From positions 5,080 through 69,079 of the forward strand of contig NJDH01000003.1 of assembly GCA_002254405.1 (NCBI GenBank): a DNA stretch of 64,000 bases, in the 5' to 3' direction. Numbering within the stretch: the first letter of the stretch is position 1; every line of letters begins with the position of its first letter. The DNA comes from Candidatus Altiarchaeales archaeon ex4484_96. Lineage in GTDB: Archaea; Altiarchaeota; Altiarchaeia; IMC4; QMZM01. Position numbers and translations under genes: made by a program. Below the pieces are notes generated by a model. The model ran no database searches. It saw nothing but the letters and a program-made list of their open reading frames with translations, and was not told where the DNA came from. Positions 950-42,445 of the stretch are shown here, piece after piece.

Positions 950-988
950 AATGAGAAACATTAAAAAATATGGAGTTGAAATATCAAT

Positions 989-3900
989 ATGAAGGTGTTT
1001 AATAGGGTGTTTAGGTGCCAGAAACTGTTATTGTTTCTCTTAGCATTCATGCTGTTTGGCTCCATGGTATACACTGTATCAGCCCAATCTGGGTTGGATG
1101 ACTGCTTAAAGACATGTAAGAGCAGTGCGGGCGGGGAGATAATTCATCTGGTGCGCTACACCATCTGCATCATCCTTAGGTTGGTTCAGTTGTTGTGTGT
1201 TATCGCATCTGTTCTGGCAATAACCCTAGCGGGTATTATGTGGATTTCATCCGACAGCAGCAGCCAGAGAGCCCTAGCCAAAAAAATAGTGATGTTCGCT
1301 TTGCTCGGGCTTATCGTGACGATGATAGTAATCCAGCTTGTGAATGCCTTTATATCCTTTGGGATTGATACAGGAAAAATATTTGTCATAGGATGTGAGA
1401 CCACCTGGGATACAACAATATATAACCCCATAAATACTGTGGCCTGCGTTCTTTATCGGGTGCTTCAGCTGGGTGCCATACTTTTAGCTGCTGTGGTCTT
1501 GACTCTGGCGGGCATCATGTGGGTTGGCTCAGACAGCCCGGAAGACAGGATACGCGCCAGAAACATCATGGTGTATGTAGTAATAGGTTTTCTGGTGGTG
1601 AATCTGGTGCTCTTGCTTCTGGGCTCTATCATTGATTCAGCAATACCCTACACATTCGATTGTAATTTGATGGCAAATGCCCCCCCGGGGATATCAGACA
1701 CCATCACCTATGTTGCCTGCATTGGATTAAGATTATTCCAGTATTCTGCGATATTGCTTGCAGTAGCGATAGTTGCCTTATCCGGGGTCCGCTTTATTTT
1801 ATCGGATAGCCCTGAGGAACGAATCAAGGCCCGCAACATGATAGCCTACACAATAGTGGGATTTCTGGTGGTTTTCACCGCAATAGCCTTTATTAACACG
1901 GCTCTCTCTGGTGTGGTGGGCACCCTGTCTTTGAACTCAATTGACTGTTCCATAACATCCTCTGCTCCAATTGACTTAGAAAATATCCGGATGACCTTGC
2001 ATAATGTTGCCTGCATTGTGATAGTTATTGTCTACTTCGTTGCTGCAGTACTCGCATCACTTGTCATCATTCTATCGGGAATATATTTTTATTCAAGCGA
2101 CGACCCGGTTGCGAGAAACCGGGCTAAAATCCTGGCAGCGCAGACGGTTGTCGGGTTGATTATTATACTTATCGCCATGAATCTCATATCAGCTCTCTTC
2201 AGCGGTGGGGGTATTACCTCAATTGAGGATGCTACTGCTGCGATATTCACCAACAACTGTGTTGCTCAAATAGGTGCGGGCACCTTCTCAGAGCTTCTAA
2301 AAGTTACAGACCCAATAAACACGGTGTTATGTGTTATTATTACACTCTTCCAGTCGCTTTCTGCTTTGATTCTTGTCTTGGTTATTATGGCTGCCGGATT
2401 CAGGTGGGCTATCTCCGACAGCCCCGAGGACAGGCTGCAGTCCAAGAGGATGGTGGTCTATGGTATAATAGGAATACTGGTTATACTGATTTCAACAAAC
2501 ATCATCTATGCCCTGATAAGCGCCGTCTCCGGGGGGGTGATAGACGACACATTCATCGCACCCGGGATGACTGGAACCCAATGCCAGATAGCTTCTGACG
2601 AGTTGGATGATGTTCTGGACATAGTCAAGGCGTTCTTGTGTATCATCCTTCTCGGGGGTTTCTTTTTGTCGGGCATAATCATAGCCTTGATTATAGTATA
2701 TGCCGGCTTGAGGTGGATTGCATCGGACAGTCCCCAAGACCGTAATGTTGCTAAGTGGATTATCATCAAGGCCTTGATTGGGTACATCCTGATTCAGGTA
2801 GCCTCGCAGCTTGTTATGGCCTTATCCACTGCATTGGTTTCAGGGGCTTTTGGTATGGGGGGCTTCTTTGACTTCCTGGGTTCCCTATTCGGTGAGCCCT
2901 ACATCATAACCTGTTTTTATTACCTGGGTGCTGGGGGTGGAACCGATGCATTCATTGGATTGGGCATCTTGTTCGCCCAGCTGTGGTTTATCTTCTGCTA
3001 TATTCTTCGGATGCTGCAGATTGTGGCAATAGCGGCTGCTGCCATAATCATTGTGGTGGCTGGCTTGAAGTGGATTGGCTCGGATTCAACAGAGCAAAGG
3101 TCTTATGTTAAGGCCCGGGTGCTTCATGCCCTGATAGGGTTGATTATTGTCATACTCGCCACATCCATAGTGGATGCCCTCTCCCTGATAGCTTTACTAT
3201 CTGATATGGTGGATGTTATACCTATTATCGGCCCGCTGATAAGCGGGATATTCGATTCTATTCTGGTAGACTTCTTCCACGTGGATGAACTATACACTAA
3301 CCTGTGTCCCGGGTGGGTTGACATACTTGGCATATTCTTCAATGAGCAGTTGAGGTTGCTTGCCTGTATCATCATCAGGATACTTCAGGGTGTTGCCGCC
3401 ATACTCGCCACGATAGTGATACTATTATCCGGCATAGCGTGGATGAGTTCTGAAAGCTATGAGGGGCGGACTAAGGCCCGGGACCGGTTGCTTCATGCCA
3501 TAATAGGTCTGTTGATTGTTATGGTAGCCTTGCAGTTGGTTAATGTTTTTGTTGTAACCGGCTTGGATTCCGCGCTCTCCTTGGACTGTAGCGGCACAGA
3601 CACCGGAGAGGTAGTTACACTGGCTAACACGCTGGGTTGTTTGATGGTTAAAATACTTGAGTCAATAGCTGGGATGATAGCGGCCATATTGATTATTGTT
3701 GCAGGATACCGGTGGATGACATCAGAAAGCCCCGAGCAAAGAGTCAAGCAGAGGAATAGAATCATCACCATACTCGTCGGGCTCACTGTCACCATAATAG
3801 CCCTGCAGCTGGTGCAGTTATTCGTCAGCGAACATGGCTTCATGCAGATTAACCCCGAGTGTATCCCCCTTTCCATAGCTCCTGTAGACTGCAGCAGCCC

Positions 3901-4168
3901 CGCAGACGAGCTGGAGGAGGTGGTATGCACCGCCCTCTATGTTGGTTGCCTCTTCATCAGGGTGCTTATGTATATCATCGCAGCGGTTGGGTTGTTGATG
4001 ATACTATGGGCCGGTATTACCTGGATTGTCTCCGATTCACCCGCGCAAAGGACTAGGGCGAGAAACATGCTCATCTCGGTTATTATAGCATTGATGGTTA
4101 TACTGCTGGCATTGGCTTTAATAAACTACCTGGTCACCGGGACGAGGATACTGAGCTTTTATTGCTGA
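989..4168 (+). CDS. 1059-aa signal-peptide membrane protein made of 10 tandem ~100-aa units. Each unit is a Cys-containing helix, a hydrophobic helix ending A-G-x-x-W, an S-D-S-P-E-x-R-x-x-A-[KR] loop, a hydrophobic helix, then a Cys-pair linker. Function unknown
   Basis: Ten W/F-x-x-S-[DE]-S motifs recur at ~100-aa spacing (ITLAGIMWISSDSSSQRALAKK, LTLAGIMWVGSDSPEDRIRARN ... ILWAGITWIVSDSPAQRTRARN). The N-terminal signal is LLLFLLAFMLFGSMVYTVSA. Confidence 0.7.
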   Translation: MKVFNRVFRCQKLLLFLLAFMLFGSMVYTVSAQSGLDDCLKTCKSSAGGEIIHLVRYTICIILRLVQLLCVIASVLAITLAGIMWISSDSSSQRALAKKIVMFALLGLIVTMIVIQLVNAFISFGIDTGKIFVIGCETTWDTTIYNPINTVACVLYRVLQLGAILLAAVVLTLAGIMWVGSDSPEDRIRARNIMVYVVIGFLVVNLVLLLLGSIIDSAIPYTFDCNLMANAPPGISDTITYVACIGLRLFQYSAILLAVAIVALSGVRFILSDSPEERIKARNMIAYTIVGFLVVFTAIAFINTALSGVVGTLSLNSIDCSITSSAPIDLENIRMTLHNVACIVIVIVYFVAAVLASLVIILSGIYFYSSDDPVARNRAKILAAQTVVGLIIILIAMNLISALFSGGGITSIEDATAAIFTNNCVAQIGAGTFSELLKVTDPINTVLCVIITLFQSLSALILVLVIMAAGFRWAISDSPEDRLQSKRMVVYGIIGILVILISTNIIYALISAVSGGVIDDTFIAPGMTGTQCQIASDELDDVLDIVKAFLCIILLGGFFLSGIIIALIIVYAGLRWIASDSPQDRNVAKWIIIKALIGYILIQVASQLVMALSTALVSGAFGMGGFFDFLGSLFGEPYIITCFYYLGAGGGTDAFIGLGILFAQLWFIFCYILRMLQIVAIAAAAIIIVVAGLKWIGSDSTEQRSYVKARVLHALIGLIIVILATSIVDALSLIALLSDMVDVIPIIGPLISGIFDSILVDFFHVDELYTNLCPGWVDILGIFFNEQLRLLACIIIRILQGVAAILATIVILLSGIAWMSSESYEGRTKARDRLLHAIIGLLIVMVALQLVNVFVVTGLDSALSLDCSGTDTGEVVTLANTLGCLMVKILESIAGMIAAILIIVAGYRWMTSESPEQRVKQRNRIITILVGLTVTIIALQLVQLFVSEHGFMQINPECIPLSIAPVDCSSPADELEEVVCTALYVGCLFIRVLMYIIAAVGLLMILWAGITWIVSDSPAQRTRARNMLISVIIALMVILLALALINYLVTGTRILSFYC

Positions 4169-4176
4169 TTTTTTTT
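4169..4176 (+). terminator. T8 tract immediately after the stop codon of the repeat protein. It sits in a convergent gene junction
   Basis: tgattttttttatcc at 4166-4180. Archaeal terminators are oligo-T tracts. Confidence 0.3.
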
Positions 4177-5983
4177 ATCCTATGGTGTATATTAGGAGAT
4201 AGATTAGTAGTATTATCGTTAAAAGGAAAACAGCCATCCCGATGGTTATCTGCTCTTCCCTGCTGAAATGCAAGGCCTTCTGTTGCTCTATTCTTTTTTC
4301 AAACGCGCCTGCTTTATCTGAGCCAGCCATCTCAAGTACTGTGACATAAAGCATGTCCCTGAAAACCCCGATCGCGTTCACCGGGTTCTTGGTGAACCAA
4401 AGAAAAATGTATGCTGTTCTGGAGGCTGTATCATCTATTTTTTTGGCATAATAGGTGAGGGGTTTCTCACAATACCACATAAATCCTTTCGCAAGTTTCC
4501 GGTAAAACCAGTCTGTGTCCAGTGATATGGTGTTTTTTCTTTTAAGCAGCGGGAGCATCACGAAAAAAGCAAGAGCTGAATAAAATAATAGCTCAAGCTG
4601 CTGCACGACGTGGTCTATTGTGTAGGCGTTGTATTCGATTTGAGCGGGCAGAATATTATACAACAGCTGCGGGTACACTCCCAGAAGTATGCAAAGGAAT
4701 GCTGCTCCTCCCATAGCATAAAGCATGTTTTTCGGGGGCTCTGTTGTTCTGATGCCTGAGTCTTTGGCGAAAAACACAAAATAAGGGAATTTTATCCCCG
4801 CATGAAGGAATACTCCTGCTGAGGCAAGCTGCAGCAGCATGAACACAGGTATCAGATGCTGGTTGGCTGCGGCTGATATTATCATGGATTTGGTTGTGAA
4901 ACCGCTGAATAGCGGGAACGCAGATATGGATGCCGCCCCTATGAGGCAGAATATTAATGTCAACGGCATGCTCTTGTATAGTCCCCCCAGCTCGGTGCAT
5001 TTTCTTTTGCCGGTCATGTATAATACTGCTCCAGCAGACATCCAAAGCAGCCCCTTGTATAATATGTGGCCGAACGCGTGTGCTGTGGAGCCGTTGAGTG
5101 AGAGCGCTGTTCCGATGCCTACGCCTGCGACCATAAACCCTACCTGGTTTATTATGCTGTAGGCGAGTATCCTGCGCATGTCGTTTTCCAGGATAGCGTA
5201 TATTATGCCGTATATTGACATTATTGTTCCCAGCCAGATTAGTATCTCCCACCCGGGGTATCCTCTTATGAGAACGTATACTGCTGTTTTGGTTGTGAAG
5301 GCGCTCAGGAACACGGCCCCGGTTACAGTGCCCTCGGGGTACGCATCAGATAACCATGCATGCAGCGGCGGAACAGCTGCATTAACAAGGAACCCAAGGA
5401 GTATAAGATTTGATGATAGCATTCCGCTGTCAGCCGCATCGAATGCGATTGAACCTGTTTGGGCTACCTGCATTATTATGCCAGCCAGCAGCACGGAGCC
5501 TCCGAATGCGTGCACCATGATGTATCTATATCCTGCCTTCCTTGAGGGTTCATCTCTTTTGTACCATATCAGCATAAGGGATGCGAGCGCCATAATCTCC
5601 CAGCAGATGAATAAAGTGAAGTAGTCTCCTGTGAAAACCACACCCAAAGCGCTTCCAACGTAAAGCAGTGCTGAAATATGCTGTCCGTCATCGTCCAGGT
5701 GCAGGGAGTATACCATCCCAAGTGTGGCCATTAACGTGAAAATGTATCCAAAGCACAGGCTTAGGTTGTCTACTCTGCCGAATATCAGCTCATAGCCCAG
5801 GAAATCAAATCCCCAGTGTGCTCCGTGTGGTAGAAACATTAGGCTGATGAAGGCTGCTGCGGGTATTAATACGAGAACTGCTTTCTTTAGCTTGCCTCCG
5901 AAAAGCGGGATGAGGGAAGCACCCAAAACTAAGATTATTCCTGGGTGGATTCCGCTGTTCAAAAGTGATGATAGCTCACTCAT
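4175..5983 (-). CDS. Mrp/Mbh antiporter large subunit. It is MrpA/NuoL-family and lacks the MrpB-like C-terminal extension
   Basis: 602 aa with about 14 TM segments. It is the NuoL/MrpA-like proton-pumping antiporter family, and it is the last gene of the mrp cluster. Confidence 0.8.
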   Translation of the reverse strand: MSELSSLLNSGIHPGIILVLGASLIPLFGGKLKKAVLVLIPAAAFISLMFLPHGAHWGFDFLGYELIFGRVDNLSLCFGYIFTLMATLGMVYSLHLDDDGQHISALLYVGSALGVVFTGDYFTLFICWEIMALASLMLIWYKRDEPSRKAGYRYIMVHAFGGSVLLAGIIMQVAQTGSIAFDAADSGMLSSNLILLGFLVNAAVPPLHAWLSDAYPEGTVTGAVFLSAFTTKTAVYVLIRGYPGWEILIWLGTIMSIYGIIYAILENDMRRILAYSIINQVGFMVAGVGIGTALSLNGSTAHAFGHILYKGLLWMSAGAVLYMTGKRKCTELGGLYKSMPLTLIFCLIGAASISAFPLFSGFTTKSMIISAAANQHLIPVFMLLQLASAGVFLHAGIKFPYFVFFAKDSGIRTTEPPKNMLYAMGGAAFLCILLGVYPQLLYNILPAQIEYNAYTIDHVVQQLELLFYSALAFFVMLPLLKRKNTISLDTDWFYRKLAKGFMWYCEKPLTYYAKKIDDTASRTAYIFLWFTKNPVNAIGVFRDMLYVTVLEMAGSDKAGAFEKRIEQQKALHFSREEQITIGMAVFLLTIILLIYLLIYTIG

Positions 5984-6203
5984 AGTATTCCTCCCTTTTC
6001 TGCAGCCATATGCCCAGTAACTTGGATACGAGTACTATTAGCACGCAGCTTAGGAAACCGTATATTGAGTAGAAACCGGGAAGTGCCTCCCATGAGACGA
6101 CGATATGGTGTTTGGGTATGAGCAGATCCGCTAGATAGATTAATACGAGAGATGCGATAAACATTTTTTTCAGGTTCCCGTATGTGAGTATTTTATTTAT
6201 CAT
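5976..6203 (-). CDS. Small membrane subunit associated with the Mrp cluster. The start is probably at the internal Met, giving 75 aa
   Basis: A hydrophobic 2-TM protein lying between the MrpD-like and MrpA-like genes. The ATG at 6201-6203 abuts the upstream stop at 6205. Confidence 0.4.
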   Translation of the reverse strand: MINKILTYGNLKKMFIASLVLIYLADLLIPKHHIVVSWEALPGFYSIYGFLSCVLIVLVSKLLGIWLQKREEYYE

Positions 6204-6204
6204 A

Positions 6205-7686
6205 TCATATGCCTCCGAATATGTTTTTTGCCATGAGCTCAACAAGCCCGTAGAAGAACCCGGGTGCATCAGGCCATAAACCGAGTATAATCGATATTGC
6301 TGCTGTCAGGGTTAAAGGTATGAGCATGAGTGCTGGTGCCTCATTCTTTTTTGTTTTGGTTTTTGCTTGCTTAAAGTAGGCACGGTATATTATCGGGAAA
6401 AAATAGGCGACGTTAAGCAGCGCGCTTGAGAGCAAAACCGCGACCAAGGGCAGCTGGTTTGCTTCAACAGAGCCTAAAAGCAGATACCATTTGCTGAGGT
6501 ATCCGCAGACGGGCGGGAAACCCGCCATACCAAAAGCAGCTATGCTGAAGGCGGCCATGGTGTAAGGCATGCTTTTGCCTATGCCGTCCAGCTCGCTTAT
6601 GTTTTTCTTTTTTGTTGCCACATATATTGCTCCGGCGCAGAAAAACAATGTTATCTTCATGAAGGCATGGTGTGCGATATGCATGACCCCGCCAAAAAGC
6701 CCTGCTGGGTTGACGTATGCCGCCCCAAGGATGATGTATGACAGCTGGCTTATGGTGGAGTAGGCTAGCATCTTTTTCAGGTTATCCTGCGTTAACGCAA
6801 ACATTGAGGCCACGAGTATTGTGTAGGCTACGAAATAGGCTAGTGGTATGCCCACGCCCAGCTTGGATACGAGTGTGGGTCCGAAGACGAAAAATATTGT
6901 TCTCACCACGCCGAATACGCCGGCTTTCACAACCGCTACCGCATGCAGTAGTGCGCTAACCGGTGTTGGGGCTACCATGGCTGATGGAAGCCAGGAGTGC
7001 AGTGGCATGAAAGCCGCCTTCACACCAAAGCCTACGATGTATGCTGCGAACAGTATCTGCAGGCCTAATACGCTGCCGTATCCGTATAGGAAACCCCCTG
7101 GTGTGAAACCCAGCGATCCTGTCAACGAGTATGTTGCTATTATGGCGAAAAGCAATACAACCCCTCCGCTGAGGGTGTAGACGAGGTATTTTCTGCCCGC
7201 TGATTTGGCTTTGGCGCTCTGTTTGTGTATGACAAGAGGGTATGTTATGAGGGTCAGTATCTCGTAGAACACGAAAAGCGTCAGCAGGTTGGCTGCGAAG
7301 GCAACCCCTATTGTTGAGGATAATGCTATTGCAAAGGATGCGAAGTATCGGGTCTGGGCGTGTTCGGCAAGTCCTCTCACGTACCCTATCGAATAAACTG
7401 ATGTCAGAATCCAAAGAAACGATGCGAGCACACCGAAAAGCAGGCCGAAGGCGTCAACCCTGAATGCGAAGGGTATCCCTGGCAGTATGTTGAATAGCTT
7501 ATAGTATATGTTGTTTCCCTCTAAAACAGCGGGTATCATTGATGCTATTATTATGAACTTTAATGTGGCTGCTATCATGGTCCATGTTTCGCGCAGGTTT
7601 CTTTTTTTATCGCTTAATAAAATCAGCACCGAGGCTGCCGCTGATATGAAAACAGCTAGCAGGGGCTTGATTGATATTACATCCAT
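6205..7686 (-). CDS. mrpD: Mrp antiporter subunit D-like (NuoM/N family), paralog 2
   Basis: 493 aa polytopic protein with NuoM/N-type conserved core segments (e.g. the ..WLPxAM..P.P.SAL.H.. region). Confidence 0.8.
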   Translation of the reverse strand: MDVISIKPLLAVFISAAASVLILLSDKKRNLRETWTMIAATLKFIIIASMIPAVLEGNNIYYKLFNILPGIPFAFRVDAFGLLFGVLASFLWILTSVYSIGYVRGLAEHAQTRYFASFAIALSSTIGVAFAANLLTLFVFYEILTLITYPLVIHKQSAKAKSAGRKYLVYTLSGGVVLLFAIIATYSLTGSLGFTPGGFLYGYGSVLGLQILFAAYIVGFGVKAAFMPLHSWLPSAMVAPTPVSALLHAVAVVKAGVFGVVRTIFFVFGPTLVSKLGVGIPLAYFVAYTILVASMFALTQDNLKKMLAYSTISQLSYIILGAAYVNPAGLFGGVMHIAHHAFMKITLFFCAGAIYVATKKKNISELDGIGKSMPYTMAAFSIAAFGMAGFPPVCGYLSKWYLLLGSVEANQLPLVAVLLSSALLNVAYFFPIIYRAYFKQAKTKTKKNEAPALMLIPLTLTAAISIILGLWPDAPGFFYGLVELMAKNIFGGI

Positions 7687-7696
7687 CTTTTTTTTT

Positions 7697-9163
7697 TTAT
7701 TGAATCAATGATATTGCCGTGTATTGCACATAGGGTAGTATCATGTAAACCAGTATCCCGAATACTATGCACGCTGCCGCTAATACCAGCATGGGTATTA
7801 GCATGCTTGCTGGAGCTATTGTTTTATCTATTTTATTTTGTTCCCCGAAGTATGCTTTCTCAAGAACCCTGAAGAAGTACCCGGCGTTTAATAGGCTGCT
7901 TGATAGTATCACGAGCGCGAAAATCCATCTGCCGGCTTCGATTGAGCCGAGAGCAAGATACCACTTGCTAAAAAAACCGCAAAGCGGCGGTACTCCGACC
8001 ATGGAAAGTGAGGCGATGGCGAAAAAAGCCATGGTGTAAGGCATTTTTTTCCCTAGGCCGTTGAAGTCCCCTATGTTTTTTATCCCTGTCTTGTATATGA
8101 TTGCTCCAACAGCCAGAAACAGGCACCCCTTCATCAGCGCATGGTTTAGTATGTGCAGGAGGCTTCCGGTCAACCCGGCTGTGTTAGCTAATCCTATGCC
8201 CAATACAATGTATCCTATCTGGCTTATGCTGCTGTAGGCGAGCATTCTTTTGATGTTTTTCTGGGCTATTGCGCTTATGGAGCCGGCTATTATGGCTATG
8301 GCGGCCGTCCATGAGAGTATTTCTCCGACAGGCATGGTTTCGATAAAAAAGTTTATAGTGAAAACATCATAGAGTAATCTTATCATCATGTATGCGCCTA
8401 CCTTGGACATGAGGGCGGCTATTAGGGCGCTCACCGTTGATGGGGCGTGGGTGTATGCGTTGGGCAGCCAGCTGTGAAGCGGGAAGAGCGCTATTTTTAT
8501 GCTTAAGCCTACGACTATCAGTACCGCGGCTGCGTGAACAACCCTTGAGCCGTAGAGTTCCTCAAGATGAAGCGACATGTCTGCCATGTTTAGTGTGCCT
8601 GTTACGGCATATAGGAATCCGATACCGATGAGGATGAATGAGGCCGCTATTGTTCCCAGTATAAGGTACTTGAAGCTTGCTGTAAGCGCCTGTCTTTTTT
8701 CTCCCAGGGCTATGAGAGCGTAAGCGGATAGCGAGCTTATCTCAAGGAAAACATACAGGTTGAATATGTCGCCTGTTACGACGATACCCAGCAATCCCGT
8801 CAGAAGCAGCATATGCAGCGTATAGTAGAATACAAGATTTTTGTTTAGTTCTTTTTCTATGCTTTTCTTGGAGTACACGCTTATGGATAATCCGATGAAG
8901 GCTATGATTGCAGCCATATAAGCTCCGAGGTTGTCTATGACATATTCTATGCCCCAGGGGGGCTCCCAGTTCCCCAGGTGATAGCTTAAAGTCCCGTGTA
9001 ATGTAACGTTTTTGATTAGCATTATTGCCAGGATGAAAACAGCCGAGGTTGCTATAAACGATAGGATATGGCAGTATCTTCTGCGTATTAAACCCACAAC
9101 AGGCATTATGAATGAGCTCATCAGGGGTATTATGACTATGAGTACCGGGAGGTTTGTGTTCAT
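7697..9163 (-). CDS. mrpD: Mrp antiporter subunit D-like (NuoM/N family), paralog 1
   Basis: 488 aa. Contains HSWLPNAYTHAPSTVSALIAALMSKVG and is homologous to the adjacent paralog. Confidence 0.8.
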   Translation of the reverse strand: MNTNLPVLIVIIPLMSSFIMPVVGLIRRRYCHILSFIATSAVFILAIMLIKNVTLHGTLSYHLGNWEPPWGIEYVIDNLGAYMAAIIAFIGLSISVYSKKSIEKELNKNLVFYYTLHMLLLTGLLGIVVTGDIFNLYVFLEISSLSAYALIALGEKRQALTASFKYLILGTIAASFILIGIGFLYAVTGTLNMADMSLHLEELYGSRVVHAAAVLIVVGLSIKIALFPLHSWLPNAYTHAPSTVSALIAALMSKVGAYMMIRLLYDVFTINFFIETMPVGEILSWTAAIAIIAGSISAIAQKNIKRMLAYSSISQIGYIVLGIGLANTAGLTGSLLHILNHALMKGCLFLAVGAIIYKTGIKNIGDFNGLGKKMPYTMAFFAIASLSMVGVPPLCGFFSKWYLALGSIEAGRWIFALVILSSSLLNAGYFFRVLEKAYFGEQNKIDKTIAPASMLIPMLVLAAACIVFGILVYMILPYVQYTAISLIQ

Positions 9164-9525
9164 TGGTTTGCCTCCATTATTTTGTCTTCGTCCAGTGTCC
9201 TGTATTCCTGGTATATCTTGATTATTATTGTGAGAGCTACTGCTGTGGTGCTAACCGAAACCACGATGGCTGTCAGAATCAGCACTTGGGGGAGTGGGTT
9301 TACGTATCCTGTCGCGTGCTCGACCAGTATGGGGGCCGAAAGCTCCTTGATGTATCCCGCGGATATGTAAAACAGGAAGATGGCTGTCTGCATTATGTTC
9401 ATGCCGATAATCTTTTTTATCAGGTTTTTTTTGGATGTCATGGCATAGAATCCTATGACCACCAATAAAACGAAAACCCAGTAATTGTATTTACCAATTA
9501 TCCATTCCAGCTCCAATTCTCTCAC
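9160..9525 (-). CDS. mrpC: Mrp antiporter subunit C (NuoK-like)
   Basis: 121 aa with 3 TM segments. Its position and the NuoK/MnhC-like sequence support the call. Confidence 0.75.
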   Translation of the reverse strand: MRELELEWIIGKYNYWVFVLLVVIGFYAMTSKKNLIKKIIGMNIMQTAIFLFYISAGYIKELSAPILVEHATGYVNPLPQVLILTAIVVSVSTTAVALTIIIKIYQEYRTLDEDKIMEANQ

Positions 9526-9946
9526 CCGCTAAGTATATGAAAAGTATTATCGTCGCCGACATAACGGTTAATCCAATCCCCAGTTCCACCCCGAGTATTG
9601 AGAGTGCCGTTGTCTCGTGGGCGTCAACAGGCAGGGGCAAGCTATCGTATTGCAGGTATTTGCCCCCGGAAAGCATATCCATTAAACCAATCCCTGAATA
9701 TATCAATACTCCTAGGCTTATGAGGATTATGAGGTGCTTTTTTGATACCCGTTTTTTTGCTTTAGACAGGCCGTATACTATGCCATATAATATCATGCTT
9801 GTTCCAAGAATCACCCCGCCCTGGAATCCCCCGCCGGGTGATGTTTCCCCGTGCACTATTACGTAGATGCCGAATAATTGGATGAATGGAATCATTATCC
9901 TTGATATTGTTCTGGCTACCAGAGATTCCACTTCTTTTTCACCCAT
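9491..9946 (-). CDS. MrpB C-terminal portion (MbhF-like)
   Basis: PFIQLFGIYVIVHGETSPGGGFQGGVILG matches the conserved MrpB/MnhB C-terminal motif. Confidence 0.7.
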   Translation of the reverse strand: MGEKEVESLVARTISRIMIPFIQLFGIYVIVHGETSPGGGFQGGVILGTSMILYGIVYGLSKAKKRVSKKHLIILISLGVLIYSGIGLMDMLSGGKYLQYDSLPLPVDAHETTALSILGVELGIGLTVMSATIILFIYLAGERIGAGMDNW

Positions 9947-10223
9947 TATTCCACCTCATAAACAATATCATCACCGCTATCCCTGCCGTGAATATGACTG
10001 TTGTCTCCCCTAGGGTATCGTATCCCCTGTAGTTGGCTAGTATTGCTGTTACAATGTTTGGGGCTCCGCCTTCTGTTTCTGAGTTATTTATGTATCTTGG
10101 TATTACGTGTTTGTTTGCTGGGTTATCCGGGTCACCGAAGCTGGGCATGTCCTCTACCACGTATATCAGGATGGCGCTCACGGCCAAAAGCGACATCAGC
10201 GAAGCGTATTTGATTTTAGTCAT
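9939..10223 (-). CDS. MrpB core portion (MbhE-like)
   Basis: NIVTAILANYRGYDTLGETTVIFTAGIAV matches the MnhB signature. Confidence 0.7.
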   Translation of the reverse strand: MTKIKYASLMSLLAVSAILIYVVEDMPSFGDPDNPANKHVIPRYINNSETEGGAPNIVTAILANYRGYDTLGETTVIFTAGIAVMILFMRWNNG

Positions 10224-10471
10224 TTCTCTTCCATCACCATTGTTTTAGATAATGCTGCTATGAAAAGGAAGGTCGTCACCCCGGCTCCTACCGCGGCTTC
10301 GGTGAACGCGACATCAGGGGAGTTGAGCACCACCCAAGTTAATGCCATGATGAGGCTGTATCCGGACAGCAGTATTGTGGCGCTTAATAGGTTTTTCATC
10401 CTTATGGCGGCATAGGATATTAATACCAGAAAAACCAGCAGTATGAAATCTATTTCTATCGGAGAGTTCAT
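10220..10471 (-). CDS. DUF4040/MrpB N-terminal-like small membrane protein (MbhD-like)
   Basis: DVAFTEAAVGAGVTTFLF motif, with position between mrpG and mrpB as in Mbh clusters. Confidence 0.6.
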   Translation of the reverse strand: MNSPIEIDFILLVFLVLISYAAIRMKNLLSATILLSGYSLIMALTWVVLNSPDVAFTEAAVGAGVTTFLFIAALSKTMVMEEK

Positions 10472-10785
10472 CCGTCCACCTCCCTTACCCAGGGCTTAAC
10501 TCCTTTGTTGTATACTGCCCTGGATATCGTATGTGTTGCCACCGGGGATGTGAGCATTATGAATATCATCATTATGAGAAGCTTTGCTGTTGTGGTTGAT
10601 ATGCCAGAATATAATCCAAGCCCGAGCAATATTAGGCTTGCTCCTAGGGTGTCTCCTTTCCCGGTCGCATGAAGTCGGGTGTAGAGGTCTGGGAATCTAA
10701 GCAATCCTATGGTGGCGGTTATGAAAAAAAACAACCCCCCGGCAAGAAACAATACCGTCACCCCATCCATAATACAATCCATCAT
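10468..10785 (-). CDS. mrpG: Mrp antiporter subunit G
   Basis: RLHATGKGDTLGASLILLGL motif typical of MnhG. Confidence 0.75.
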   Translation of the reverse strand: MMDCIMDGVTVLFLAGGLFFFITATIGLLRFPDLYTRLHATGKGDTLGASLILLGLGLYSGISTTTAKLLIMMIFIMLTSPVATHTISRAVYNKGVKPWVREVDG

Positions 10786-10788
10786 TTC

Positions 10789-11052
10789 CTATAATCCCCC
10801 GAACTCTATTTGTTTAGATAGTGCCACCGTTAATATGAAATTAAATAGCGCGTATACTATTGCGACATCGACAAAATAGAGGCTGTCAAACAGGTAGCCT
10901 ATGAGCACCACTATTATGATTGTTTTAGTGCCTACTACGTTTATGGCTATCGCCCTGTCCCATGGTTCGGGTCCTACTATCGCCCGGTAGAGGCAGAGCA
11001 GGGTGGTGGCCAGCAGGCATAATGTTGTGTACTCGAATATTTCTTGCATCAT
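10789..11052 (-). CDS. mrpF: Mrp antiporter subunit F
   Basis: 87-aa 3-TM protein in the expected position and of the expected size for MnhF. Confidence 0.6.
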   Translation of the reverse strand: MMQEIFEYTTLCLLATTLLCLYRAIVGPEPWDRAIAINVVGTKTIIIVVLIGYLFDSLYFVDVAIVYALFNFILTVALSKQIEFGGL

Positions 11053-11540
11053 GTTTCGTCCTCAAATATCTCCACCAATCTGGTTCTCATCGTGCCATCT
11101 AATAGCTCCTGCGCCGATTTATCCGATAGTGAGTGGACAAAATACCTGTTTTTCTTTACGTCTATGGTTATTGTCCCGGGTGTGAGTGTTATTGAGTTGG
11201 CGAGTGTTGTTTTCCCTATATCCCCTTTAAGCTGCGTATCGAATTCTATAATCTTGGGGTTGATGGGCATGCTGGGATGTAAAACCCGATACGCTACATC
11301 CAGGTTGGCGAGTATTATGCTGTATCCCAGGTAAATCAGGTATTTGAGGGCTTGGATTATTTTTTTTAGTGAGGTGTTTGTTTTATCTTCTGCTATCAGT
11401 AAATCGCTGGAGTAGTACGCTACGAGCAGACTACCGATTACTCCGGCGCTGATATGCAGTAAGTCGATTCTTGCGGACAGCAGCATCCAGAATAACACCA
11501 TGATTGCGAATGTTAGAGTAAAGGGCTTTATCTTTACCAT
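11049..11540 (-). CDS. mrpE: Mrp antiporter subunit E
   Basis: 163 aa with N-terminal TM segments. It is the first gene of the cluster, as in Mbh/Mrp (E-F-G-B-C-D order). Confidence 0.6.
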   Translation of the reverse strand: MVKIKPFTLTFAIMVLFWMLLSARIDLLHISAGVIGSLLVAYYSSDLLIAEDKTNTSLKKIIQALKYLIYLGYSIILANLDVAYRVLHPSMPINPKIIEFDTQLKGDIGKTTLANSITLTPGTITIDVKKNRYFVHSLSDKSAQELLDGTMRTRLVEIFEDET

Positions 11541-11627
11541 TTTTATTACTTCATTTACTATAATTGAGTTATAATTATCTGTAACTATAATTAATTATAA
11601 TGATAAATTAAATCAATAATATCTACG
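11541..11627. promoter_or_regulatory. AT-rich divergent intergenic region between the mrp cluster (minus) and atpI (plus). It is expected to carry the two promoters
   Basis: ttttattacttcatttactataattgagttataattatctgtaactataattaattataatgataaatt contains several TATA-like hexamers on both strands. Confidence 0.4.
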
Positions 11628-13646
11628 ATGTTCAAACCAGTGTCCATGAAGAAGGTTCGATTGGGGGTCTTAGACCGCTACGTTGAGGATGTCATGCGTG
11701 AACTCAGCAAAATGGGGGTCGTTCATATATTGGATATAAAGGACACCAAAATAGAGGTGGAGCAGGAACCCATGGATTCTGAGCAATGTACTGAGCTTTT
11801 ACGCAGGATAAACCATGTTATTGATTTACTGGGCATAACAGAAGAACACGACGCCTTTGGCGAGCTAAAAATCATTGAAGACAAGATTGCGGTAACCGAG
11901 AAATCCTCAACCGAGCAGTTATCGGGGGTGGCAGATAAATTCCAAAAAATCGAAGCCAAAACTCTTGCTGCAAACGATAAGCTCATTGAGTTATCTGCTA
12001 GAGAAGAGGAAATCAAAGGCGATATCGAGCGGCTTAGGGTGCTTAAGGCTGTTGACTTAAAAGCTGATTGGGTTGGGGCTTCAGGGATGCTGGTTACATT
12101 ATCCGGTCTTCTTGCACCAGAGTACCGATCTAAACTGGTTGCGAAACTGGATGAAGCCTTCGGGAAGGAGTATATCTTTCATGCCTCAAAGCAGAATATC
12201 GGCGGTCTCATACCCTCTGTCGTTTCAACTCTGATAGAAAACACAGATAAACTGGATGAGCTAATATCTGGCATTGATTTCAGGCCCGTTGCATTAAAAG
12301 GTTACGTGGGCGACCCCGTTAGAGCCATAGATGAGTTAAACACAGAGCTTGATGACATAAAAAAGGAGAAGGAGAAACTAACGGCAGGGCTTAGAAGTCG
12401 AAGCGAACAATACAGGATTGATTTGCTGGTTATGCGAGAGCTTGTTTTAATAGAGAAAAACATAGATGACGCCGAGAACCTGCTGGGTAAAACAAAAAGG
12501 GTTTATGTTTTGCAGGGCTGGGTTCCTGAAAGAAGCATACAGGATATTTTGCGCAGGATAAGAAAGATAACAGATGAGAATGTGTTCATCAGGGTCGAGA
12601 ACCCAAAGGAAGATGATAGGGTTCCAACCTTTTTGGATAATCCCAGCGTTTTCAAGCCTTTTGAGGTTATTACCTCCACATTTGGCTTACCTTCATATAA
12701 TGAGCTGGATCCCACCCCTGTTCTGGCTTTGACTTTCCCCTTCATATATGGTTTGATGTTCGGGGATGTAGGACATGGTTTCATGGTGGGGTTGATTGGC
12801 TTGATTCTTTTTTCCATGGCCAGTAAGGGCACTAGGGATCTGGGTTTTGTTTTAACCGTTTCTGGTTTGTCTGCGATGGTTTTCGGCGTATTGTATGGTG
12901 ATTTTTTCGGTTTACATGGTATAATTCATCCGGTCTGGACATCACCTCTTGAGGCTCCTACGACCCTGTTGTTGTTTATTTTTGGCGTGGGGATGGTTCA
13001 CATCGGTCTTGGTTTGTTTATGGATGTGGTGAAGCTTCTGGCTAAGGGGGAATTACTTCATGCGTTGTTTGAGCCGATAACCAAGCTCTGGCTTTACTAT
13101 GGTACGGTTGCTTTTGGTTTAATGAGTTTCCAGTCTTATGGGATGGACGTAATAAGCTGGGTGGGGAATATGGCTTTCCTGCCTCTTATTGTGCTGCCTC
13201 TTGTGGTTCTTGCATTCTCGGGGGTTCTGGTTCATCTGCCCAGGATTGATGTGAGCAAAATCGGGGCTCAACTGGCTGAGGGGGGCTTTGAGGCGTTTGA
13301 CACGGTTTTGATTTTTCTTTCGAATACCTTATCCTATGGCCGTATGTTTGCCTTGTTGCTTGTTCATGCCGGGCTTTTTGTTGCCTTGTTCAGTGTTGTG
13401 GGGACGTTTACGGGCATAAATCATCATAATCTGGTTTTGGGTGAGATGGTTTCTGTTGAGGGTATTATATGGTTTGTTTTTATTTTTATCGGCACTTTTT
13501 TGATTATTGGATTGGAGGGTCTTATTGTTTTCCTGCACACTCTGAGGCTTCACTATTATGAGTGGTTCACGAAGTTTTTTGACGCGGAGGGAAATAAATA
13601 TCAGCCATTCACAATAAAAAGAATATATACTCTGATTGGACGATAA
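11628..13646 (+). CDS. atpI: A-type ATP synthase subunit I (a-subunit of the V/A-ATPase family)
   Basis: 672 aa with an N-terminal soluble coiled-coil region and C-terminal TM helices. The essential Arg motif LSYGRMFALLLVHAGL matches the subunit-a consensus LSYxRLxALxLAH. Confidence 0.85.
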   Translation: MFKPVSMKKVRLGVLDRYVEDVMRELSKMGVVHILDIKDTKIEVEQEPMDSEQCTELLRRINHVIDLLGITEEHDAFGELKIIEDKIAVTEKSSTEQLSGVADKFQKIEAKTLAANDKLIELSAREEEIKGDIERLRVLKAVDLKADWVGASGMLVTLSGLLAPEYRSKLVAKLDEAFGKEYIFHASKQNIGGLIPSVVSTLIENTDKLDELISGIDFRPVALKGYVGDPVRAIDELNTELDDIKKEKEKLTAGLRSRSEQYRIDLLVMRELVLIEKNIDDAENLLGKTKRVYVLQGWVPERSIQDILRRIRKITDENVFIRVENPKEDDRVPTFLDNPSVFKPFEVITSTFGLPSYNELDPTPVLALTFPFIYGLMFGDVGHGFMVGLIGLILFSMASKGTRDLGFVLTVSGLSAMVFGVLYGDFFGLHGIIHPVWTSPLEAPTTLLLFIFGVGMVHIGLGLFMDVVKLLAKGELLHALFEPITKLWLYYGTVAFGLMSFQSYGMDVISWVGNMAFLPLIVLPLVVLAFSGVLVHLPRIDVSKIGAQLAEGGFEAFDTVLIFLSNTLSYGRMFALLLVHAGLFVALFSVVGTFTGINHHNLVLGEMVSVEGIIWFVFIFIGTFLIIGLEGLIVFLHTLRLHYYEWFTKFFDAEGNKYQPFTIKRIYTLIGR

Positions 13647-13660
13647 TACACAATTTTATT

Positions 13661-13717
13661 CGATTAATATTTTAAAAAAACATAATATTTTAAACAAATA
13701 GAGGTGAACGACAAAAA
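13661..13717 (+). promoter_or_regulatory. Candidate promoter/5'UTR of atpK, with a TATA-like element atattttaaa and a Shine-Dalgarno gaggtga 10 nt upstream of the ATG
   Basis: Seen in sequence at 13685-13707. Confidence 0.35.
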
Positions 13718-14023
13718 ATGAAGCTAGGAAAGATATTGATGGCATGCACTACACTGCTTTTGCTAGCGGGGATAGTCGCAGCGCAAGAAAACACGGAATC
13801 AGCAACACCATCAGGTAAAGAGATGGCAGCCGCATTGGCTATCGGTGTTGCAGCTCTCGGAGCCGGATACGGTGTTGGCGTAGCAGGCTCGGCTTCGGTT
13901 GGAGCCATAGCAGAGAAACCCGAGGTTTTCGGCAGAGCACTTGTGTTTGTGGCCTTCGCAGAGACAATAGCCATATACGGACTATTGGTTGCTTTAATGA
14001 TACTCTTCGGAATAGGTGCCTGA
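13718..14023 (+). CDS. atpK: A-type ATP synthase proteolipid subunit K (c-subunit)
   Basis: GxGxGxG-rich hairpin with the ion-binding Glu in AFAETIAIYGL. 101 aa, including an extra N-terminal hydrophobic segment. Confidence 0.85.
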   Translation: MKLGKILMACTTLLLLAGIVAAQENTESATPSGKEMAAALAIGVAALGAGYGVGVAGSASVGAIAEKPEVFGRALVFVAFAETIAIYGLLVALMILFGIGA

Positions 14024-14048
14024 TGCATCCTTTCAACAAAATAAAGAT

Positions 14049-14087
14049 GCGCAGATAGTATTTATTCTGCGCAGTCTTGTTTTTATT
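14049..14087 (+). terminator. 7-bp stem-loop (GCGCAGA..TCTGCGC, 10-nt loop) followed by a TTTTTATT tract, lying between atpK and atpC. It could be an intra-operon terminator/attenuator
   Basis: gcgcagatagtatttattctgcgc at 14049-14072, T-tract at 14080-14087. Confidence 0.4.
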
Positions 14088-14106
14088 ACCTAGATTTGGT
14101 GAGAAC

Positions 14107-15132
14107 ATGAGTATCGCGCAAATAAAAAATTATGCTTACGCCAACGCCCGCATAAGGGCCATGAAAAGCAATCTGTTATCCAAAGCCGATTTAGAGAGGG
14201 CTTGCAGGCTTGAGGATTTAAGCAGCTTCATGGGTTTTCTGGAAGAGCACAGTTATCCGGAGCTCTTTGACATAAAAAAACACACCCAGAAGGTGGTTGA
14301 ACATGCGTTACACACCCATCTTGTGAATAACTCAAACAAAATTTATTCACTCACCCATGATAGAGCCAAGCCTTTTATGGGTGCTAGAACAAACAGAAAC
14401 GAAATCAACGCCATAAAGGGTATAATAAACTCTAAACCCCAGAACAGGGAACCATTTAAGGTTCTTTTATCCAGGAAGATGGCCAACGGTTTCAGCCGGG
14501 TAAAAGATGCTAATGACATGGAGAAGCTGGTGACCGGTTTCAAGGGGACAAAATACGAGAAAATACTGGAGTCTGTATCAGAGGATTATGCGAAAACAAA
14601 CAATATTTTCCTCTACAGCATTATGCTGGATAAACACCACTTTAGCCTACTCTATGAAACCATGAATCTGCTTGATTCATCCGATAAAAGCAAAGCACGA
14701 GATATCATCGGATTAGAGGTCGATACCTTAAACATCTCAACTGTTTTCAGAACCCTTGGCATGGAGAACTCAGCTGATTATATCATACCCCACTATCATA
14801 AACTACGCAGGCAGTTGATTGATGAGTGTTTGAGGTGCAAGGATGTGGCTGATGTTGTCTCCAAAATGTCTGATACTCAATACGGTGAATTATTGGGTAA
14901 TGGCTTATCTGTTTACGAGAAAACAGGCAGTGTTTTTATCTTTGAGCGGGTGCTGAAAGAAAATCTTTTGCTTGCTAACAGGATGCTTCTTGTAAAAAAC
15001 ATATTCAATATCGGCGTTTTGCTTGCGTTTCTTAACATAAAAGAGGCTGAGATACTGAATCTGCGCAGAATAGCTGTTGGACTGAACCATAAGCTGCCGG
15101 CAGAGGAAATCAAGGATCTTGTTGTTTACTGA
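14107..15132 (+). CDS. atpC: A-type ATP synthase subunit C (V-ATPase d-subunit family). The start was moved from the listed 14077 to the Met following the T-tract
   Basis: N-terminus MSIAQIKNYAYANARIRAMKSNLL matches the YAYxNARIRAMKSxLL start of the AtpC/V0-d family. About 340 aa. Confidence 0.7.
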   Translation: MSIAQIKNYAYANARIRAMKSNLLSKADLERACRLEDLSSFMGFLEEHSYPELFDIKKHTQKVVEHALHTHLVNNSNKIYSLTHDRAKPFMGARTNRNEINAIKGIINSKPQNREPFKVLLSRKMANGFSRVKDANDMEKLVTGFKGTKYEKILESVSEDYAKTNNIFLYSIMLDKHHFSLLYETMNLLDSSDKSKARDIIGLEVDTLNISTVFRTLGMENSADYIIPHYHKLRRQLIDECLRCKDVADVVSKMSDTQYGELLGNGLSVYEKTGSVFIFERVLKENLLLANRMLLVKNIFNIGVLLAFLNIKEAEILNLRRIAVGLNHKLPAEEIKDLVVY

Positions 15133-15334
15133 ATCTTTTTGTTGTCCTATACAGGAAGTATATCAACCCAAGGGTTGCTCCCATAAACATGCCCAGGGCT
15201 TTAGCGATTTCGTTAAATAATCCCCCCACCAGATACCCCACCGCTATCAGGATGATTACTGCGCCAGCCAGCTCCACCGCATAAGGCAGGGAGCTGATTA
15301 TTATTGTTTTGTCGAATTTGATTTTTTTCACCAT
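15110..15334 (-). CDS. Small 2-TM membrane protein, function unknown
   Basis: 74-aa ORF with two hydrophobic helices, tightly placed upstream of carS on the same strand. Confidence 0.3.
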   Translation of the reverse strand: MVKKIKFDKTIIISSLPYAVELAGAVIILIAVGYLVGGLFNEIAKALGMFMGATLGLIYFLYRTTKRFSKQQDP

Positions 15335-22393: not shown

Positions 22394-23353
22394 ATGGAAT
22401 TTGTTACTTCGATGGCGGGAAGCTATCCTCGCCCTGACTGGTTTAAGCTTCATCTAAAAAAACAGGAGGGTTCGCAGAAGGGGGTGGCAGGTTTAATCGA
22501 CGACCGGTATGTGAAGGCCTTAAAGCAGGTGTTGGATGAGCAGGATAAGGCGCAAATCCAGCTTAAAACCGACGGCCAGCTCCTATGGCATAACATGTTA
22601 TGTCATCTTTGCTATAAGATTGAGGGTTTTGCACCCGGCGGCCTAATCAGGTTTTATGACAACAACATGTATTATCAAAAACCAAGGGTTGAGTCCGAGC
22701 TTAAACGAAAAAATTCAATTATATTAAGCGAATACCTGAAAGCCAGGGAATCAGGCCATGATATCAAACCTGTTTTATCCTGTTATACTCTGACTAAATT
22801 ATCCTCAAACAGTTTTTATTCCTCTGATGATGATTTTCTTCAGGCTTTAGCCTCTGTTTTAAACCAGGAAGCCAGGGATTTAGCGGATGCTGGAGCCCGG
22901 GTGATTCAGGTGGACGAGCCGGCGCTTTTATCTGCGGATAAAGAAGGTCTTGAGATAGCAAAAAAAGCCTTTGAGGTTTTGGTTAAAGATGTTGACGCCT
23001 CCTTCGTATTATCCACCTATTATGCGGATGCTTCGAAGGCATTCGCTGAGCTTCTTGAGTTTCCGGTTCAGGGTATTGGCCTTGATTTCGTAGAAGGTAA
23101 AGACATTAACCTTAAACTAATAAAGGAGCATGGATTGGATTTGGATTTACAGGCGGGGGTGGTGGATGCCAGGACAACAAGAATGGAGGACCCGGCAAAT
23201 GTCTCTAAACTCGTTTCTGAAATAACCAAAGCAGTTGATTCAGATAGATTATATGTTTGCCCTAATATGGGATTAGAGTATCTGCCTTATGTGAAGGCGG
23301 CTCAGAAGCTGAGTGTTTTATCTGATTCGATAAGGGGGGGTGTGCTGAGATGA
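22394..23353 (+). CDS. Half-size cobalamin-independent methionine synthase paralog lacking the zinc ligands (like the MetE N-terminal domain)
   Basis: Homologous to the next gene (VIQVDEPALL vs FIQIDDPAIS), but HxCYG and DxDCG are replaced by LSTYYAD and CPNMG. Confidence 0.7.
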   Translation: MEFVTSMAGSYPRPDWFKLHLKKQEGSQKGVAGLIDDRYVKALKQVLDEQDKAQIQLKTDGQLLWHNMLCHLCYKIEGFAPGGLIRFYDNNMYYQKPRVESELKRKNSIILSEYLKARESGHDIKPVLSCYTLTKLSSNSFYSSDDDFLQALASVLNQEARDLADAGARVIQVDEPALLSADKEGLEIAKKAFEVLVKDVDASFVLSTYYADASKAFAELLEFPVQGIGLDFVEGKDINLKLIKEHGLDLDLQAGVVDARTTRMEDPANVSKLVSEITKAVDSDRLYVCPNMGLEYLPYVKAAQKLSVLSDSIRGGVLR

Positions 23354-39232: not shown

Positions 39233-39233
39233 T

Positions 39234-40181: not shown

Positions 40182-40185
40182 AAAA

Positions 40186-42440: not shown

Positions 42441-42445
42441 ATAAA

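Follow-up and report, generated by a model that had tools for sequence, protein, structure and literature searches.

Three genes for subunits of an A-type ATP synthase, atpI, atpK and atpC, stand together on a contig of Candidatus Altiarchaeales archaeon ex4484_96 from the Guaymas Basin. Most probably they constitute the membrane-sector (Ao) operon of a single A-type ATP synthase whose catalytic and stalk genes lie elsewhere in the genome. The enzyme would then be encoded in two places, as the product of a rearranged operon and not as a crippled machine: I, K and C would have been gathered into a transcription unit of their own within a clade of Altiarchaeales, with E, F, A, B, D and probably the small H at other positions. 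The metagenome-assembled genome (MAG) is 67.6% complete (Dombrowski 2017 supplement); the supplement provides MAG statistics without ATPase rows, and a literature search found no mention of ex4484_96 in main texts.

Layout of the I-K-C block

The canonical A1Ao operon, for example in Methanosarcina, reads ahaHIKECFABD or atpHIKECFABD, an order that was also met in 40-50 of the loci in this analysis. This arrangement, with E between K and C and F-A-B-D directly after C, does not occur at the block. In the window, the 64,000-nucleotide stretch of DNA analysed here, the plus strand carries atpI (11628-13646, 672 aa, PF01496), atpK/c (13718-14023, 101 aa, PF00137) and atpC/d (14107-15132, 341 aa from the ATG at 14107, PF01992). 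A reading made from the sequence alone had recognized only these three ATPase genes, and the ORF listing and Pfam confirm all of them together with the positions at which they end. The same reading had E missing between K and C and F, A, B and D absent nearby, and both points hold. The K-C spacer of 53-83 bp leaves no room for E, and tblastn searches for A, B, D, E and F gave no match at E<=1e-4 in the 64 kb window and extensions of about 10 kb on each side, taken from other assemblies (L003 and L007). Pfam or NCBIfam scans of 43 window ORFs, among them most of the large ones, likewise identified no further ATPase genes.

Upstream of atpI, a spacer of 87 bp (11541-11627) is followed by the divergent, minus-strand mnhE, and H is therefore absent as well. 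Direct reading of the sequence gives this spacer an A+T content of 84%, and the equivalent spacers of relatives have 65-89%; it is likely to be a bidirectional archaeal promoter region. A sigma-70 promoter and terminator scan, whose model is inapplicable to archaea, returned counts at or below shuffle expectation. A cluster encoding an Mrp Na+/H+ antiporter divergently adjoins the block in the window and in the related locus L011, whereas in L090 an ArsB/CitMHS-type permease and Usp occupy the Mrp position. Downstream of atpC follow a 74-aa minus-strand ORF (referred to as S), CarS and AspRS; pilin genes, CarS and AspRS make up the flanking synteny common to the relatives.

The three subunits

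AtpI matches PF01496 in Pfam with 157.5 bits (cutoff 30.7, E 5e-46), and its residues 1-668 align with positions 1-676 of the 680 in the NCBIfam model NF004428, with a score below the equivalog cutoff (320 vs 766 bits). The match spans both the cytoplasmic N-terminal domain (approximately residues 1-340) and the C-terminal membrane domain. In PDB alignments with Enterococcus NtpI and eukaryotic subunit a, the conserved essential arginine Arg572 (codon 13341-13343, motif LSYGRMFALLLVH) lies in SYGRMFALLLVH and is aligned with the arginine of SYLRLWALSLAH, while Arg640 in LHTLRLHYYEW is aligned with LHALRLHWVEF. These features identify AtpI as subunit I (a), the stator and ion channel of the enzyme. 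An NCBI protein of ex4484_96 has a sequence 100% identical to it. No Shine-Dalgarno sequence precedes atpI, so that a leaderless transcript or a short leader is possible.

AtpK matches PF00137 with 72.9 bits (cutoff 24, E 2.6e-20) and positions 7-100 of the 102 in an NCBIfam model, below the equivalog cutoff. It consists of an N-terminal hydrophobic, signal-like segment and one helical hairpin. Glu82 (codon 13961-13963, motif FAETIAIYGL) aligns with the conserved carboxylate in the second helix of V-type c subunits of known structure in the PDB, which identifies AtpK as the proteolipid c subunit with Glu82 as its ion-binding residue. The Na+-binding signature of c subunits comprises a glutamine in helix 1 and Glu-Thr or Glu-Ser in helix 2. 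AtpK has Glu-Thr in the window and Glu-Ala in the orthologues, and the helix-1 glutamine is not seen; H+ seems the more likely coupling ion.

A GAGGTGA Shine-Dalgarno sequence precedes atpK and is kept in all four lineages that share the block. Just 3' of the gene, on the plus strand, a hairpin (GCGCAGA...TCTGCGC) with a T-rich run occupies 14049-14087, and the K-C spacer folds at -22.3 kcal/mol. A comparable hairpin and T-run occur in L090 and L092 and are absent from the AT-rich L011. The element is possibly a partial terminator that lifts the c-subunit transcript over that of atpC.

AtpC matches PF01992 with 195.2 bits (cutoff 29, E 2.4e-57) over 1-338 of 339 and TIGR02923 (AhaC) over positions 3-348 of 348, the latter below the equivalog cutoff (168 vs 240.5); a weak full-length match to Thermus subunit C (1r5z) was also obtained. 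The longest atpC ORF extends from 14077 to 15132 and, if read from the in-frame TTG at 14077, would encode a protein of 351 aa. The most likely start is the ATG at 14107 (341 aa), given the starts of the orthologues, a GGTGA Shine-Dalgarno sequence before it and the same call in another assembly. The protein is very divergent, with 11 word-sharing homologues in all; the best matches outside the clade are 25-29% identical, the closest of them from L093. Its family matches identify it as A-type subunit C (V-type d), the socket that links the D/F shaft to the c-ring.

In the proposed enzyme, AtpK would form the c-ring, and AtpC would cap or plug the ring and receive the D/F shaft. Ions would cross between Arg572 of I and Glu82 of c and thereby rotate the ring, C would hand the torque to D/F inside A3B3, and the E/H stalks would tie A3B3 to the N-terminal domain of I. 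Together with the hairpin and T-run, the strong Shine-Dalgarno sequence of atpK could raise the output of c towards the stoichiometry of the ring, and S may assist the membrane sector.

Conservation of the I-K-C order

The I-K-C order, without E and without F-A-B-D, was found in the window, in L011, L001, L002 and L014, in L090 and L091, and in L092; L016 has I-K and the start of C before its contig ends. The AtpI proteins of the relatives are 42-53% identical to that of the window, and the four lineages fall into one clade with 99-100% bootstrap. In unrelated atpC loci with enough flanking sequence, F or A comes right after atpC in 42 of 43, and E or K right before it in 50 of 52. The I-K-C order is no accident: it marks an operon that is conserved and kept under selection within a clade of Altiarchaeales.

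The dN/dS ratio, calculated for a single pair of 98%-identical relatives and with small counts, is about 0.15 for atpC and 0.27 for atpI, similar to the 0.23 of CarS; only this pair was used because synonymous sites would be saturated at approximately 50% protein identity. Among the window, L011 and L090, the identity of AtpC relative to the membrane domain of I was set against canonical operons, giving 47.5-52% compared with a baseline of 54+/-2%; for the N-terminal domain of I the corresponding values are 48-50% and 52+/-3%. The conservation of both is thus at or slightly below the canonical baseline. Comparisons with L092 give 55-61% identity for the membrane domain, a level at which canonical operons have a baseline of 46-58% for the cytoplasm-facing parts; here these parts are 29-33% identical and have thus diverged more than the membrane domain predicts. 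This excess, the strong divergence of AtpC and the scores of all three proteins below the equivalog cutoffs weigh against the reading as one enzyme encoded in two places.

Head genes in the wider group

With 86% identity to the protein of L090, the AtpI of ex4484_2 (OYT54715.1) falls inside the I-K-C clade, and phylogenetic bracketing suggests that ex4484_2 also has the I-K-C arrangement. In a published COG count table, NtpA, B, I, E, D, F, C and c are each credited once to ex4484_2; of the 9 Altiarchaeota genomes in the table, 7 have A and 7 have B, and in published counts I, C and c occur once each in most Altiarchaeota sampled. Alpha, beta, D and c are common to Altiarchaeales (Bird et al.), and according to published tables most of the Altiarchaeales or Altiarchaeota genomes sampled have A, B and D. 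The single-copy head genes of ex4484_2 and the conserved I-K-C clade together support the suggestion, made from the sequence alone, of a scattered ATPase gene set. The accompanying hint at reduced or symbiotic archaea fits loosely: Altiarchaeota are often placed with DPANN, yet they are considered free-living autotrophs.

In two genomes of Bird et al., E and F lie five pegs apart. A cluster bounded by E and F is only a hint, since the intervening pegs are not listed. The sister lineage P0020, with 42% AtpI identity, has all subunits in one rearranged, Altiarchaeales-like cluster of the order x-C-E-F-A-B-D-K-x-CBS-CBS-I; the group therefore probably descends from an ancestor with a complete set whose order was already non-canonical. 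A scan of a genome collection returned a single relative. A search with AtpB of L093 gave 1141 matches, and among the 120 listed, those named by organism were Bathyarchaeota only, with no Altiarchaeales.

Alternative explanations

The sequence-only reading had offered loss of the catalytic head as the other way to account for the block. In a fuller form of this view A, B, D, E and F would be gone, and the membrane sector would conduct ions, passively or under regulation, perhaps with the adjacent Mrp. The lack of any head gene within about 85 kb and the divergent Mrp cluster here and in L011 speak for this view, as do the partial ATPase gene sets published for many DPANN genomes. However, the ion residues are intact, and the N-terminal domain of I, which binds the stalks, is kept at full length and conserved. 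The same is true of AtpC, which is under purifying selection and is not known to have any role besides coupling the shaft to the ring. Moreover, isolated Vo sectors have been reported to be closed to ion flow, which counts against a conduit; A and B are credited to ex4484_2, whose AtpI nests in the clade; and the Mrp adjacency is not conserved, L090 having other genes in its place. Head loss is unsupported and improbable. A functional coupling between Mrp and Ao was likewise not adopted, as L090 and L091 do not have the two side by side.

Two A/V-type operons are present in some archaea and bacteria. The block could be a second, specialised sector, a paralogous partial copy, if a full canonical operon including another I, K and C stood elsewhere in the genome. 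Several metagenome loci in this analysis show two copies, and the proteins of the block are unusually divergent. Nonetheless, I, C and c are counted once each in ex4484_2 and in most Altiarchaeota sampled; all AtpI homologues with more than about 33% identity fall into a single Altiarchaeales-like clade in which no lineage is duplicated; and none of the related loci showed a second copy. Together these points make a paralogue very unlikely.

Although the sequence is a metagenome assembly, a chimeric contig or binning error that parted I-K-C from the remaining operon has next to no probability: the identical layout is present in at least four independent assemblies of this organism (JGI, two or more from ENA, and Logan) and is therefore not an assembly artefact, and the same order, with shared flanking synteny, recurs in four divergent lineages from other samples.

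Comparison with known ATPases

The block shares with the canonical operon homologous I, K and C genes, the same essential arginine and glutamate and the I-K adjacency and order. It differs in lacking E between K and C, H upstream and F-A-B-D downstream, and in the PF09527-like gene that abuts it. The preferred reading, a membrane-sector operon of one enzyme, has a structural counterpart in Thermus thermophilus, whose isolable Vo consists of a, c12 and d, i.e. exactly I (a), K (c) and C (d); the gene split thus follows a natural assembly module. In eukaryotic V-ATPases, Vo likewise assembles independently. PDB entries matched in the alignments of I, c and C were 5gar, 6qum and 1r5z. In Thermus a single operon encodes every subunit, whereas here the boundary of the module has become that of the operon.

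Nanoarchaeum equitans, which has a scattered, reduced set of only A, B, D, I and c according to a published table, resembles the present case in its dispersed ATPase genes and in being another archaeon assigned to the proposed DPANN grouping. It differs in the absence of C, E and F and in having an enzyme that is considered inactive, whereas C is present and conserved in the block and relatives have a full set. Other rearranged loci are L089 (I alone with S), L015 (C alone) and L093, from Bathyarchaeota (A-B-D-C). None of the clusters in P0020, L089, L015 and L093 groups exactly I, K and C. The order of the ATPase genes is thus not fixed in Altiarchaeales-like lineages or in some other archaea, and is unusually fluid in the former.

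A small membrane protein beside atpC

ORF S (15110-15334, minus strand) encodes a protein of 74 aa for which two transmembrane helices are predicted. The ORF lies downstream of CarS and is convergent with atpC, overlapping its 3' end by 23 nt. Orthologues that are 31-48% identical to the window protein adjoin atpC in L001, L002, L011, L014, L090, L091 and L092, and in L089 S directly follows atpI on the same strand. The Pfam family PF09527 is weakly matched by 5 of 6 and by 7 of 8 relatives of S (best E 1.3e-5 and 4.9e-6), while the window protein itself has no match at E<=1. Because S stands beside atpC or atpI at all related loci and its relatives show weak matches to PF09527, the earlier view of this minus-strand ORF as an unrelated gene was probably wrong. 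The family is confined to 8 representative clusters in 1.84 billion proteins, and a family HMM found no copy near the canonical operons of other loci.

The small membrane protein AtpQ, or 'ATPase gene 1' (PF09527), belongs to bacterial F-type and N-ATPase operons (Dibrova et al. 2010, PMC2881411). Like AtpQ, S is small and hydrophobic, of similar size and located beside genes of an ATPase membrane sector; unlike AtpQ, it accompanies an A-type and not an F-type enzyme and is convergently encoded. These likenesses make S a candidate accessory membrane protein of the AtpQ/'ATPase gene 1' type. A more tentative idea, which we regard as possible but rather doubtful, is that the clade has made an assembly boundary genetic, an Ao-only I-K-C operon being permanently paired with a lineage-specific, AtpQ-like S. 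If so paired, S would to our knowledge be the first accessory or assembly factor of the PF09527 family tied to an A-type (archaeal) membrane sector.

Implications

It is important to point out that a truncated-looking ATPase cluster on a metagenomic contig should not be taken for loss of the head, especially in a 68%-complete MAG. The fluid gene order of Altiarchaeales-like archaea could likewise affect automated calls of complete or incomplete ATP synthases. The block offers a clean example of an operon split along a physical subcomplex boundary, Ao on one side and A1 with the stalks on the other, and bears on ideas about the modular assembly and evolution of rotary ATPases. S provides a testable lead for an archaeal Ao accessory protein; if the pairing is true, its role might be, for example, that of a c-ring chaperone or of a plug for free Ao.

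The atpI-atpK-atpC block and its surroundings

The window encodes three subunits of an A-type ATPase, which according to the ORF listing and Pfam lie co-directionally on the plus strand: atpI (11628-13646, 672 aa; PF01496, 157.5 bits), atpK, encoding the c subunit (13718-14023, 101 aa; PF00137, 72.9 bits), and atpC, encoding the V-type d homologue (listed at 14077-15132; PF01992, 195.2 bits). This bears out the incomplete cluster that the sequence-only reading had described, with the amendment that atpC most likely starts at ATG 14107, giving 341 aa, because orthologues start there, a GGTGA precedes this ATG and one other assembly carries the same call. All three proteins score under the strict NCBIfam equivalog cutoffs; I and C align with their profiles over nearly the full length, and K over positions 7-100 of 102. 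AtpI carries Arg572, which faces the c-ring, and a second conserved Arg640, and the c subunit has the ion-binding Glu82. To judge from these sequences, AtpI, AtpK and AtpC are complete though divergent proteins.

The K-C spacer is too short for an E gene, so that the reported gap at this position stands, and the mere 87 bp (84% A+T) between atpI and the divergent mnhE leaves no H. The absence of F, A, B and D from the neighbourhood likewise holds: Pfam or NCBIfam revealed no A/B, D, E or F domain in 43 window ORFs, most large ones included, and tblastn, for which subunits A, B, D, E and F of canonical operons served as references, gave no match in the window or in flanking extensions of about 10 kb on each side, taken from other assemblies (L003, L007).

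Downstream of atpC, the minus strand carries a 74-aa ORF followed by CDP-archaeol synthase (CarS) and AspRS. Across the 87-bp spacer, atpI diverges from a stand-alone Mrp/Mbh-type Na+/H+ antiporter cluster of eleven genes without hydrogenase subunits (4175-11540, minus strand; MnhE, F, G, MbhD, MbhE, MnhB, MnhC, two MnhD-like proteins, a 75-aa ORF and a 602-aa NuoL-like protein). In the related locus L011 the two are neighbours as well; L090/L091 have an ArsB/CitMHS-type permease and Usp there, and the Mrp cluster was therefore rejected as part of the ATPase system. Cation-transport genes (TrkA-like channel, Na+/Ca2+ exchanger) flank the block instead in L090 and L092. The stretches 122-4168, 41364-42440 and 45493-46107 encode proteins of repeated T4SS_pilin/TrbC-like domains (275 aa, then 1059 aa with eight matched stretches) along with further weak pilin-like ORFs; L090 has these pilin genes too, upstream of atpI with two genes in between, and they are thus part of the conserved synteny.

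Elsewhere in the window, six co-directional plus-strand ORFs at 33229-43942 (1598, 401, 315, 393, 358 and 498 aa), five without any Pfam match and the 358-aa ORF weakly pilin-like, may form a lineage-specific surface-structure locus. Two MetE-like genes of half size lie side by side and overlap (22394-23353 and 23350-24318, plus strand; 319 and 322 aa); both match the Meth_synt_1 as well as the Meth_synt_2 profile, and an ECF/CbiQ-type ABC transporter pair precedes them. ARAGORN detected no tRNA gene anywhere in the 64 kb.

A derived gene order fixed in one clade

Relatives whose AtpI is 42-53% identical to that of the window (L001/L002, L011, L014; L090/L091; L092) share the I-K-C order followed by the same small convergent ORF, without E and without F-A-B-D; the short contig L016 holds I-K and the beginning of C. 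Neighbour joining of AtpI places these lineages in one clade, supported by bootstrap values of 99-100%. As a control, 75 metagenome loci with distant atpC homologues were annotated: among those with enough flank, F or A immediately follows atpC in 42 of 43, and E or K immediately precedes it in 50 of 52. The layouts of the nearest AtpI and AtpC relatives outside the clade vary, including a single rearranged cluster of all subunits with two CBS-domain genes inside (x-C-E-F-A-B-D-K-x-CBS-CBS-I; contig of P0020, 42% AtpI identity), atpI followed by unrelated genes (39%; LarA in L095 3-1709), a lone atpI followed by the same small ORF (L089 700-2951, 33%) and, for the nearest AtpC, a lone atpC (L015 589-1623). 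In this group the order of the ATPase genes is therefore unusually fluid; I-K-C is a derived state that has become fixed and is stable in one clade.

L093 (1-3896), whose AtpB shares 87-89% identity with proteins that bear the name Bathyarchaeota, departs from the canonical order as well: it has A-B-D-C, with atpC last and then convergent genes. Nine unrelated metagenome contigs (L013, L021, L022, L025-L028, L043, L085) carry two convergent V/A-type ATPase gene sets, C-F-A-B-D facing D-B-A-C, which are duplicated head operons arranged tail to tail.

The convergent small ORF

The minus-strand ORF after atpC (15110-15334, 74 aa, two predicted transmembrane helices), here called S, shares 23 nt with the stop region of atpC. 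It is indeed present, and its description as unrelated is probably wrong: an orthologue adjoins atpC in every I-K-C locus, even in L092, though there a Na+/Ca2+ exchanger replaces CarS, and relatives weakly match PF09527 'ATPase_gene1' (5 of 6 and 7 of 8 S-family members; best E 4.9e-6). The window copy itself has no PF09527 match. In L089 the orthologue lies directly 3' of atpI on the same strand, and an S-family HMM found no copy beside the canonical operons of other loci. An exhaustive search of 1.84 billion proteins returned only eight representative clusters. PF09527 corresponds to AtpQ, a small membrane protein encoded in the F-type and N-ATPase operons of bacteria (Dibrova et al. 2010, PMC2881411). 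A role of S with the membrane sector is plausible.

Proposed working and expression of the block

In the Thermus enzyme, the isolated Vo/Ao sector consists of exactly I(a), c and C(d), the same composition as that encoded by the block, so the operon has most likely split along a physical assembly boundary, that of the membrane sector. Upstream of atpI lies the AT-rich divergent spacer without a Shine-Dalgarno motif. A strong GAGGTGA precedes atpK in all four lineages, and a stable hairpin with a T-run follows it in three of them (window 14049-14087); both features would fit a higher output of the multi-copy c subunit.

A probable single enzyme with its genes in two places

Two readings had been offered for the missing genes, a scattered gene set or loss of the catalytic head, and it is the former that is well supported. 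Under head loss, a membrane sector alone would persist. The E/H stalks attach at the N-terminal domain of I, and we know of no function of AtpC beyond linking the ring with the D/F shaft; the retention of both argues that the head is still there to be coupled. In one pair of relatives (98% DNA identity, hence small counts) dN/dS is 0.15 for atpC and 0.27 for atpI; the neighbouring CarS gives 0.23. How well the cytoplasm-facing parts are conserved relative to the AtpI membrane domain was also examined, taking canonical operons at equal membrane-domain identity as the baseline. Among the window, L011 and L090, AtpC (47.5-52% versus 54±2%) and the N-terminal domain of I (48-50% versus 52±3%) are at or slightly under the canonical range. 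In pairs of L092 with these three, the AtpI membrane domain is 55-61% identical, whereas the N-terminal domain and AtpC (called short in L092, 321 aa) reach only 29-33%, below the canonical 46-58%; cytoplasm-facing parts may have evolved faster in that lineage.

Head genes are, moreover, recorded within the clade. OYT54715.1 of 'Ca. Altiarchaeales archaeon ex4484_2' belongs to the cluster of AtpI P0018, a protein with 52% identity to the window AtpI. OYT54715.1 itself is 86% identical to L090 AtpI and nested within the I-K-C clade; we infer that the ex4484_2 genome itself has the I-K-C layout. In a COG count table, NtpA, B, I, E, D, F, C and c each appear once for this genome, and of nine Altiarchaeota genomes seven have A and seven have B (Mahendrarajah et al. 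2023, PMC10656485, Supplementary Data 4); alpha, beta, D and c are listed as common to Altiarchaeales genomes (Bird et al. 2016, PMC4975002). Head loss is thus not supported. A second, paralogous I/K/C set is argued against by the single copies of I, C and c in ex4484_2. An assembly artefact is ruled out, since JGI, ENA and Logan assemblies of this organism, made independently, agree in the gene order.

An NCBI protein of 'Candidatus Altiarchaeales archaeon ex4484_96' matches the window AtpI at 100% identity; the authors of this MAG from the Guaymas Basin put its completeness at 67.6% (0.92 Mb, 65 scaffolds, 44.1% G+C; window G+C 44.7%). The case for a head in ex4484_96 is built on its relatives and on what the block retains, which leaves a small overall uncertainty. 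The single-copy counts and the A and B records favour a single enzyme whose genes lie in two places, an ordinary A-type ATP synthase whose gene arrangement is unusual and specific to the clade.
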